64,000 bases of DNA from Candidatus Atabeyarchaeum deiterrae (GTDB taxonomy: Archaea > Asgardarchaeota > Atabeyarchaeia > Atabeyarchaeales > Atabeyarchaeaceae), in NCBI GenBank assembly GCA_037310415.1, contig CP147780.1, positions 448,001-512,000 of the forward strand. Direction: 5' to 3'. A model generated the notes under the pieces. That model had not been told where the DNA came from. It saw nothing but the letters and a program-made list of their open reading frames with translations, and did not search any database. The translations under genes were made by a program, and so were the position numbers. Of the stretch, positions 14,553 to 17,500 are shown piece after piece; the first letter of the stretch is position 1; every line of letters begins with the position of its first letter.

Positions 14553-17500
14553 AACGCCAACGCCGCCTGGGGGATGGCTAGGCTTGGGCGCTGAGGAAGG
14601 CCGTGGCAAGCTGCGATAAGCCTCGGGTAGGCGCATGCAGCCCGTGATCCGAGGATGGCCGAATGGGACTTCCTGATTAAGGTCAATAACCTTAATCGCT
14701 CCCGCAAGGGAGTGGGAACTCCCCGAAGTGAAGCATCTCAGTAGGGGAAGGAAAAGAAACTAACAAGGATTCCCTGAGTAACGGCGAGCGAAACGGGAAG
14801 AGGGCAAACTGAATCCTGCAAGGAAACTTGTAGGAGATGTAGTGTTACAGGACCCAGCTGCCACCTCTTCGAGGAAGCTGAAATACATGGAATTGTATAC
14901 CTCAGAGGGTGATAGTCCCGTAAGCGTAACTCGAAAAGTGTTGGGCCGGGTATCCTGAGTACCGTGGGTCAGTTATCCCGCGGGAAGTTGGGAGGTACCG
15001 ACTTCCAACCCTAAATACGTCCCAAGTCCGATAGCGCACTAGTACCGTGAGGGAAAACTGAAAAGTACCCCGGAAGGGGGGTCAAAAGGGCCTGAAACCA
15101 GGCGGTTATAGACGGGCGCGGCCTAAAAGGGTAGAGTCTCCCTGAAGGAACCTGGGGTGACCCAGCAGTACGAAGGGAGAGGACCAGGGTTGCGCCATCC
15201 GTCTTGAAACACGGGCCGGGGAGTCCACGCTTGTGGCGAGCCTAAGGAGGTAAAGCTCCGTAAGCAAAGGGAAACCGAAACGCCCGCAACCAGCTTAATT
15301 GCTGGCGAGGGGCTGGGTCTGAAAGGGCCTGGAGTCACAGGCGTGGGACCCGAAGCTGGGCGATCTAGCCCTGGCTAGGACGAAGCCAGACGAAAGTCTG
15401 GTGGAGGTCCGCAAGGGTGCTGACGTGCAACTCGCTCCCCTGAGCTGGGGCTAGGGGCAAAAAACCAATCTAGCCCAGGGATAGCTGGTTCCCTCCGAAG
15501 TAGATCGCAGCCTAGCCTGGCTGGAGGTTGCTGATGGGGTAGAGCACCGATTGGGAGGCCACGGGATCGAAAGATCCCACTTTCCTATCAAACTCCGAAC
15601 CTATTAGCGCCGTAGAAGGCCAGAGACGGGTGCCGACGGATAAGCTGTCGGACCGAGAGGAGAACAATCCAGACCGGGGTTAAGGTCCCAAAGTGCCGGC
15701 TAAGTGTCAAACCAAAGGGTGTCCGCAGCCTTAAACAGCAGGGGAGTAGGCTTAGAAGCAGCCATCTCTCAAAAAGTGCGTAACAGCTTACCTGCCGAGG
15801 TTGTGGGCCCCGAAAATGGACGGGACTAAAGCCGGCCACCGATACCCCGGGACACGGTGAATGCCGTGATTCGGTAGGGGGGCGTTCCGGTTGGGTCGAA
15901 GCTGAGCCGTGAGGTTCAGTGGACCGATCGGAAGTGAAAATCCCGGTGGTAGTAACAACGAAGCCAGGTGAGACTCCTGGCCGCCGAAGGGGCTCGGGTT
16001 CCTCGGCAACGCGTCGTCAGCCGAGGGTCAGTCGATCCTAAAGCTAAGCGTAACTCGCTTTAGCTGAAAGGGAAACTGGTTTATATTCCAGTACCATGGA
16101 GGTACGATTGCGGCGACGCTAAGCTTGGTCCCTGACGCTTTTGGGTAGGTTGAACAGGGTCTTCGCCTTGTTTAAGTGTATAAGCCTAGGGAGGGCTGTA
16201 AAAGCGAGAACTAGGCGAAAGCACGAATAGCCGCCCGTTTAGGGTGGTTCAGCCGATCCCGGGAGCCCGTGAAAAGGGGATCAAGAAGGATCCTCCATGT
16301 CCGTACCTAGAACCGACACAGGTGCCCCTAGGTGAGAAGCCTCAGGCGTATCGGAATAAACTCAGGCAAGGGAAATCGGCAAATTAGCCCCGTAACTTTG
16401 GGATAAGGGGTGCCTGAAACTTTTGGCTTAAAAACCAGGGGTTTTAGGTCGCAGTGACTAGGGAGGCCTGACTGTTTAATAAAAACATAGCTTCCCGCAA
16501 GCCCGCAAGGGTGTGTACGGGAGGTGAATCCTGGCCAGTGCAGGTACGTTAAGCCTGGTTCCAACCGGGTGAAGCGCCTGTAAACGCCGGGAGTAACTAT
16601 AACTCTCTTAAGGTAGCCAAATGCCTTGTCGGACAAGTACCGACGTGCATGAATGGAACAACGAGGTCTCTACTGTCCCTGCCTGGGGGCCGGTGAACCC
16701 ACGTAACCTGGCGAACGGTCCAGGAACTCCCAAGGGGAAAAGAAGACCCCGTGGAGCTTTACTGCAGCTTGGTGCGGGGGTGCGGTTGTAGTTGCAGAGC
16801 GTAGTCGGGAGCCGTTAATACCAGTCTTTTCGGGGACTGGCTAGGCGCCAATGCCACACCGACCTTTTATGACTGTATCCCTAACCGGGGGTTACCCCGA
16901 GACAACGCTAGGTGGGCAGTTTGGCTGGGGCGGCACGCCCTTGAAAAGGTATCAAGGGCGCCCAAAGGTCGGCTCAACCGAGACAGAAACTCGGCGTAGA
17001 GGGCAAGGCCAAAAGCCGGCCTGACTGAATCCTGAAGAGCAAAGGATGCAGAGGCGAAAGCCGGGCCTAGCGATCCTTCATGTCCTCCTCGGTGGGGGCT
17101 GGAGGTGACAGAAAAGTTACCCCGGGGATAACAGAGTCGTCGCGGGCAAGAGCCCATATCGACCCCGCGGCTTGCTTCCTCGATGTCGGCTCTTCCCATC
17201 CTGGAGGTGCAGCAGCCTCCAAGGGTAGGGCTGTACGCCCGTTAAAGGGGAACGTGAGCTGGGTTTAGACCGTCGTGAGACAGGTCGGGTTTTATCTCTT
17301 GGGAGTGCGCGGTCGCCTGAAGGTAAGGTACCCTCAGTACGAGAGGGCAAGAGTGCTGTGTGCACCTGCTCCGTAAGAGGAACGGGGTGCCGTGGCCTCT
17401 GGTATACCGGTTGTCCGAGCGGGCAACGCCGGGCAGCTAAGCCGCAAGTGATAAGGGCTGAAAGCATCTAAGCCCGAAACACAACCTGAAAAGAGGCGAC

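Follow-up and report, generated by a model that had tools for sequence, protein, structure and literature searches.

A probable 34-nucleotide tRNA-type intron in the sarcin-ricin loop of Atabeyarchaeia 23S rRNA

Bulge-helix-bulge (BHB) introns have long been known in archaeal rRNA. In Desulfurococcales and Thermoproteales they interrupt the conserved core of the 16S and 23S rRNA, carry the BHB motif at their junctions and are removed by the tRNA splicing endonuclease (PMC4496867, PMC6125680), the fate that we predict for an intron in the Asgard lineage Atabeyarchaeia. Archaeal group I introns, at LSU positions 1923, 1931, 2500 and 2593, also interrupt functional centres of the large subunit, but these are ribozymes of hundreds of nucleotides, often with homing endonuclease genes, and none is listed at the sarcin-ricin loop (PMC6125680). 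The non-canonical tRNA introns of Atabeyarchaeia and Freyarchaeia (PMC11291895; bioRxiv 10.64898/2026.10.13.758758) share genomes, size range and machinery with the intron described here, and differ from it in their host RNA, which here is 23S rRNA. Introns are present in 92-95% of the tRNA genes, many of them at non-canonical sites (genome paper PMC11291895). rRNA introns go unmentioned in these two sources: '23S' is absent from the first, 'rRNA' and '23S' from the second. In Pyrococcus an internal 23S piece is also excised, from helix 98, during processing; the LSU rRNA there is reported to become circularly permuted (PMC7758197), whereas the cut ends in Atabeyarchaeia would have to join each other.

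[quoted passage not shown] Alpha-sarcin cuts the loop's G2661-A2662 bond and ricin depurinates A2660 (PMC2896532). The intron described here interrupts the phosphodiester bond that alpha-sarcin cuts, although the latter is a toxin acting on mature ribosomes. It differs from the rRNA introns of Desulfurococcales and Thermoproteales in its length of 34 nt, lack of an ORF, Asgard host, location in the sarcin-ricin loop and relaxed exon-side helix. What is new is the site, the host, the very small size and a possible origin in place. In a literature search, no previous description of an intron in the sarcin-ricin loop came to light, an absence that is not in itself proof.

The window, the whole 64,000-nt stretch that was analysed, comes from Candidatus Atabeyarchaeum deiterrae (Atabeyarchaeia-2; CP147780.1, positions 448,001 to 512,000), whose contig is single and 2,756,679 bp long. 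This is a complete genome of 2,756,679 bp from Californian wetland soil, with a sister genome of 2,808,651 bp (PMC11291895), and the assemblies were checked with long reads (PMC11291895). A whole-genome search with the sarcin-ricin region returned one match, giving a single 23S copy, so the interrupted gene must supply working rRNA. In wetland and peat metatranscriptomes, at most 0.37 of the sampled words were present.

Positions 17336-17383 read AGTACGAG, then 34 nt (AGGGCAAGAGTGCTGTGTGCACCTGCTCCGTAAG), then AGGAAC (Table 1). In the cmscan alignment the helix 95 loop has 37 nt against 3 in the RF02540 model, an excess of 34 nt, and removing the insert restores the universal 14-mer AGUACGAGAGGAAC exactly. 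E. coli numbers were assigned by alignment to the universal A2654-C2667 sequence, AGUACGAGAGGA(C/A)C, with PMC2896532. A self-splicing group I or group II intron does not fit the locus, where the only Rfam match is LSU rRNA and the insert is 34 nt long; nor does the location suit an expansion segment, as the insert lies within the universal 14-mer of helix 95 and not in a variable region. The original prediction described a loop split by 34 nt with a perfect TACG/CGTA helix and encoding no homing endonuclease: the first is correct to the base, and no such gene can fit in 34 nt.

Sequence alone leaves the insert position ambiguous, because AG/AGG is repeated at both insert ends and six equivalent 34-nt shifts give the same product. 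We therefore applied the archaeal BHB rule, in which each strand of a 4-bp central helix is followed on its 3' side by a 3-nt bulge that is cut between its second and third bases. Of the six shifts, a single one obeys it, with cuts at 17343|17344 and 17377|17378, a UACG/CGUA central helix paired at 4/4 positions, AGA/AGA bulges and a 5-bp inner helix. The chance of a 4/4 helix with an inner helix of at least 5 bp at an allowed cut was 2.7e-4, estimated from 200,000 composition-matched shuffles of the insert. The predicted cut maps to E. coli G2661|A2662, the alpha-sarcin bond; since the only shift with a 4/4 central helix gives that bond, the earlier placement of the insert there is upheld.

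Table 1 Features of the interrupted 23S rRNA gene and of the related mini-introns. Coordinates are window positions unless marked L110.
Feature	Position	Strand	Remarks
rRNA operon, 16S	12111-13608	+	Rfam match
rRNA operon, 23S	14549-17663	+	Rfam match; RF02540, 2836.6 bits
RNase P RNA	17834-18233	+	Rfam match
Helix 95 stem, 5' strand (outer helix of motif)	17327-17335	+	Minimum-free-energy fold
Exon 1 end	17336-17343	+	AGUACGAG = E. coli A2654-G2661, 5' half of sarcin-ricin loop
Central helix H, exon strand UACG	17338-17341	+	4/4 Watson-Crick with 17372-17375
Bulge 1, AG|A	17342-17344	+	3 nt between H and h'; predicted 5' cut after 17343
Candidate 34-nt BHB intron	17344-17377	+	Extra relative to RF02540 and 73 Asgard 23S genes; unique BHB solution
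Inner helix h', 5' strand GGGCA	17345-17349	+	Pairs with 17367-17371
Intron terminal hairpin GUGC, 5-nt loop, GCAC	17353-17365	+	Minimum-free-energy fold
Inner helix h', 3' strand UGCUC	17367-17371	+	Pairs with 17345-17349
Central helix H, intron strand CGUA	17372-17375	+	Invariant in 4 variants
Bulge 2, AG|A	17376-17378	+	Predicted 3' cut after 17377; 4-nt loop in minimum-free-energy fold
Exon 2 start	17378-17383	+	AGGAAC = A2662-C2667
Helix 95 stem, 3' strand	17380-17391	+	Minimum-free-energy fold
Atabeyarchaeia-1 23S mini-introns	L110 4805-4837, 4966-5014, 5581-5612, 5716-5821		Core regions, domains IV-V
Repeated splice-site words	17337-17343 with 17371-17377; L110 5709-5716 with 106-nt intron end; 9145-9151 with 9175-9181		

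Folded by minimum free energy, 17326-17392 takes up the BHB structure. The shorter construct 17330-17389 favours an alternative fold with two hairpins, which we set aside because it has minimum free energy only with the outer stem truncated. In the BHB fold the outer helix is not contiguous with the central helix: A17336 and G17337 are unpaired, facing G17380 and G17379, respectively, and the strict-register score is xxx|x||x. With this gap between the outer and central helices, the 3' cut falls in a 4-nt/2-nt or larger internal loop and not in a strict 3-nt bulge. As modelled, the intron motif, with its 5-bp inner helix, is of the relaxed HBh' type as opposed to the strict hBHBh' type. Motifs of the HBh' type are substrates of (alpha-beta)2 and epsilon2 endonucleases.

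An insert at the same site is found in Atabeyarchaeia-1, in the MAG 'Promethearchaeati archaeon LC30' and in three JGI metagenome contigs, and is known as four sequence variants. The four family lineages that carry it are about 91-92% identical in 23S. In the other Asgard archaea compared, the loop is intact. Of 400 Asgard genomes, 75 matched a 23S anchor pattern. The loop is continuous in 73 of these, from 13 other families; the remaining two belong to the Atabeyarchaeia family. Atabeyarchaeia-1 was missed by the pattern because another intron splits its anchor. When inserts of 12-42 nt at G2661|A2662 were sought in 185,579 genomes, one per species and leaving out the window's own genome and its nearest kin, LC30 was the only true case. 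The 73 matches of that scan comprised 66 intact loops with a chance AGGAMC, six other chance or variant matches, and LC30. The original prediction had proposed a survey for inserts at 2661/2662; run here on genomes, it places 12-42-nt inserts only in the Atabeyarchaeia family. A search of JGI metagenome contigs for the lineage-specific flanks, using a pattern that accepted intron-bearing and spliced forms equally, gave three matches, every one of them intron-bearing; spliced and intron-less forms were absent.

One scan match was of separate interest. Contig L041 (JAIWAR010000018.1), from a MAG labelled Methanosarcinales, has a bacterial-type sarcin-ricin loop with AGGACC, and its flanks closely match Omnitrophota contigs among the same scan matches. 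Judged by these sequences, the contig is probably mis-binned.

Variation among the four variants follows the predicted structure. All five variable columns of the alignment lie in the intron, against 0 of 33 exon columns (P 0.029), and the 22 intron columns that are firmly paired contain none of the five (P 0.003). Besides hairpin-loop positions, the five include one unpaired base, one marginal pair and one bulge base: the terminal hairpin has invariant stems and a loop that varies at 17358 and 17361, and position 17377 has A in LC30 but G in the other three variants. The first four pairs of h' are likewise invariant. No compensatory base changes were found among the four variants, whose mean column identity is 97%, because divergence is too low.

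Genes for the enzymes of tRNA-type splicing are present. The genome encodes two EndA paralogues (PF01974 matches twice). The first, a 238-aa ORF, has its best matches to PDB chains 3p1z_B, 3ajv_B, 2cv8_A and 2zyz_B, which we take to be crenarchaeal catalytic subunits; the second, a 198-aa frame, has weaker matches that include 2zyz_A and NEQ261, presumably structural subunits. Two paralogues make the broad-specificity (alpha-beta)2 form of EndA probable, a composition that they fit without proving it. RtcB is also encoded (582 bits).

Taken with the BHB geometry, the absence from all other Asgard 23S genes examined and the conservation within the family, the EndA and RtcB genes support identification of the insert as an intron. 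We put at roughly 0.85 the probability that the 34 nt form an archaeal tRNA-type BHB mini-intron that is excised and whose exons are rejoined. In the precursor, exon nucleotides U2656-G2659 (17338-17341) would be paired with the intron's CGUA (17372-17375) and hence sequestered. Each strand of the central helix would be followed by a 3-nt AGA bulge, with the 5-bp intron helix and the small hairpin closing the structure. EndA is predicted to cut both strands behind the second base of the bulge, after 17343 and after 17377, and RtcB to join the exons, remaking the G2661-A2662 bond and with it the universal loop sequence. The 34-nt intron would be released, probably as a circle, and only after splicing could the loop take its bulged-G and GAGA factor-binding fold. 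A working ribosome in this lineage thus very probably requires its rRNA to be cut and rejoined at the alpha-sarcin bond; every ribosome would need an endonuclease cut and a ligase repair at a place where one unrepaired cut is lethal.

Three other fates of the interrupted gene deserve comparison with this reading. EndA might remove the 34 nt and leave a mature 23S made of two fragments that the ribosome keeps together, as happens with bacterial intervening sequences; a precedent is reported for Pyrococcus helix 98, an internal excision without rejoining across the site (PMC7758197). We find this very unlikely at the present locus. A lasting break at G2661-A2662 would equal the lesion by which alpha-sarcin inactivates ribosomes (PMC2896532), in keeping with the earlier claim that cleavage without ligation would inactivate the subunit. 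Furthermore, cutting by the rule gives back the exact universal 14-mer, a match of no consequence unless the ends are joined, and the genome encodes RtcB. Alternatively, the 34 nt might stay in the mature 23S as a loop extension. Asgard rRNAs do carry expansion segments (PMC7594248), and a 59-nt insert is present in helix 98 here. Yet expansions sit in variable regions, and the 34-nt insert breaks up a GAGA tetraloop that belongs to one of the best-conserved sequences in rRNA; retention would also leave the fit to the BHB cut rule (P ~3e-4) and the conserved helices unexplained, and is very improbable indeed. The gene might, finally, be read as a pseudogene. Each of the three, unjoined cutting, retention and a pseudogene, either leaves the fit to the cut rule unexplained or predicts an inactive ribosome.

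Further mini-introns are present in the lineage. The 23S gene of Atabeyarchaeia-1 contains another four inserts, of 33, 49, 32 and 106 nt, at GACUGUUUAAUAA^AAACAUAG, CUCUCUUA^AGGUAGCC, GGCUUGCU^UCCUCGAUGUCGG and CGUCGUGAG^ACAGGUCGG, and for each of them a strong inner helix accompanies a 4/4 central helix in exactly one shift. All four are missing at the same sites in Atabeyarchaeia-2 and JGI contig L106. By sequence position, three of the four appear to adjoin LSU intron hot spots such as 1923-1931, 2500 and 2593 (PMC6125680). These four introns appear to be unreported. In the window, the valS gene has a 31-nt insert (9151-9181) that follows the same BHB rule, with a central helix ACGG/CCGG containing one mismatch, and its removal restores one open frame through ...PMGIDRNGLPIEVQ.... 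The proliferation of Asgard tRNA introns would thus extend to rRNA, with one intron in Atabeyarchaeia-2 and five in Atabeyarchaeia-1, and, with the valS case, to mRNA too.

These neighbours bear on whether the sarcin-ricin intron serves a purpose. The original prediction proposed a selected checkpoint, a late licensing of the GTPase centre in which no elongation factor could engage the subunit until it was spliced. The intron is indeed kept in all four sampled family lineages, and in the predicted fold the loop bases of the precursor are locked in the central helix. However, persistence is equally expected of a neutral intron that is hard to lose precisely, and the intron is missing from every other Asgard genome examined. 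In addition, the four other core-site mini-introns of Atabeyarchaeia-1, none of which occurs in Atabeyarchaeia-2, show that such introns come and go, with no evident need for them and nothing special about the sarcin-ricin loop site. The checkpoint idea finds no support here and is unlikely. Most simply, the intron is one more product of the lineage's BHB intron proliferation, not a device with its own function.

How the intron arrived may be recorded in its own ends. At its head (AGGGCAAGAGUGCUGUG) the intron agrees with the head of exon 2 (AGGAACGGGGUGCCGUG) in 11/17 positions, and its tail can be aligned with that of exon 1, ACC--CUCAGUACGAG against ACCUGCUCCGUA--AG. A head that copies exon 2 and a tail that copies exon 1 are the pattern expected from a tandem duplication of the 34-nt helix 95 hairpin, d1-d2 -> d1-[d2-d1]-d2. 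The likeness to the permuted flanks has a shuffle P of 3e-4 over all 34 nt and of 0.009-0.034 without the terminal repeat, the central-helix strand and the bulges; an equally good score occurs at only 3 of 3041 23S positions, and the signal is present in all four variants. The same duplication test gave no signal for the four Atabeyarchaeia-1 23S introns (P 0.07-0.97). We tentatively suggest, as a possibility that the sequence likeness raises but does not make the likelier case, that the intron was born in place by such a duplication. Owing to the loop palindrome GUAC, the duplicate copies would pair straight away into a central helix of 4 bp, each strand followed by a 3-nt bulge, and a BHB born in this way could be cut by a broad-specificity EndA. 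If true, this would be a route for the de novo birth of BHB introns in hairpin loops, and earlier-branching introns would be expected to lie closer to AGGAACGGGGUGCCGUG + GGUACCCUCAGUACGAG. Tests of how Asgard tRNA introns arrived did not include hairpin duplication.

The original prediction also offered another origin, in which a ribotoxin cut was repaired by RtcB with a stray RNA and the result then copied into DNA. The bond is the one that alpha-sarcin cuts, and ribotoxins and EndA leave products with the same end chemistry. Against this, the positional agreement depends on picking one of six equivalent shifts, and reverse transcription and recombination would both be needed. Intron ends that resemble the flanking exons in permuted order fit duplication at the DNA level better. 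The ribotoxin relic finds no support here, and we regard it as extremely improbable; the permuted exon-like ends point to local duplication.

A second candidate source within the gene was considered and rejected. The conserved 23S hairpin at 15411-15444 matches the Atabeyarchaeia-2 intron at 26/34 positions with a score of 11, reached by none of 150 shuffles. The other three variants score 5, 1 and 7, so that the likeness is confined to the Atabeyarchaeia-2 form and probably due to chance.

Several of the introns have near-identical helix-plus-bulge words at both splice sites, which amounts to near-palindromic central helices. The words are CGUGAGA/CGCGAGA and CGGAUA/CGGAUU, and AG|A stands at both ends of the sarcin-ricin loop intron. 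Such repetition could reflect the symmetry of the enzyme or intron birth by duplication.

The 16S-23S spacer (13609-14548, ~940 nt) has no tRNA by Rfam or ARAGORN, and ARAGORN reports one tRNA only in the window. In duplex folding, the flanks of the 23S gene are mutually complementary. Relative to the archaeal LSU model, the 23S has the 59-nt insert at 17504-17562, at the helix 98/ES39 position; it is common to Atabeyarchaeia-1, Atabeyarchaeia-2 and JGI contig L106, and resembles a small three-way expansion segment more than it does an intron. The RNase P RNA gene starts just 170 nt past the 23S end. It exceeds the Rfam model by 112 nt, with inserts at ~17860-17881, ~17998-18061 and 18178-18202, the last of which is a clean hairpin.
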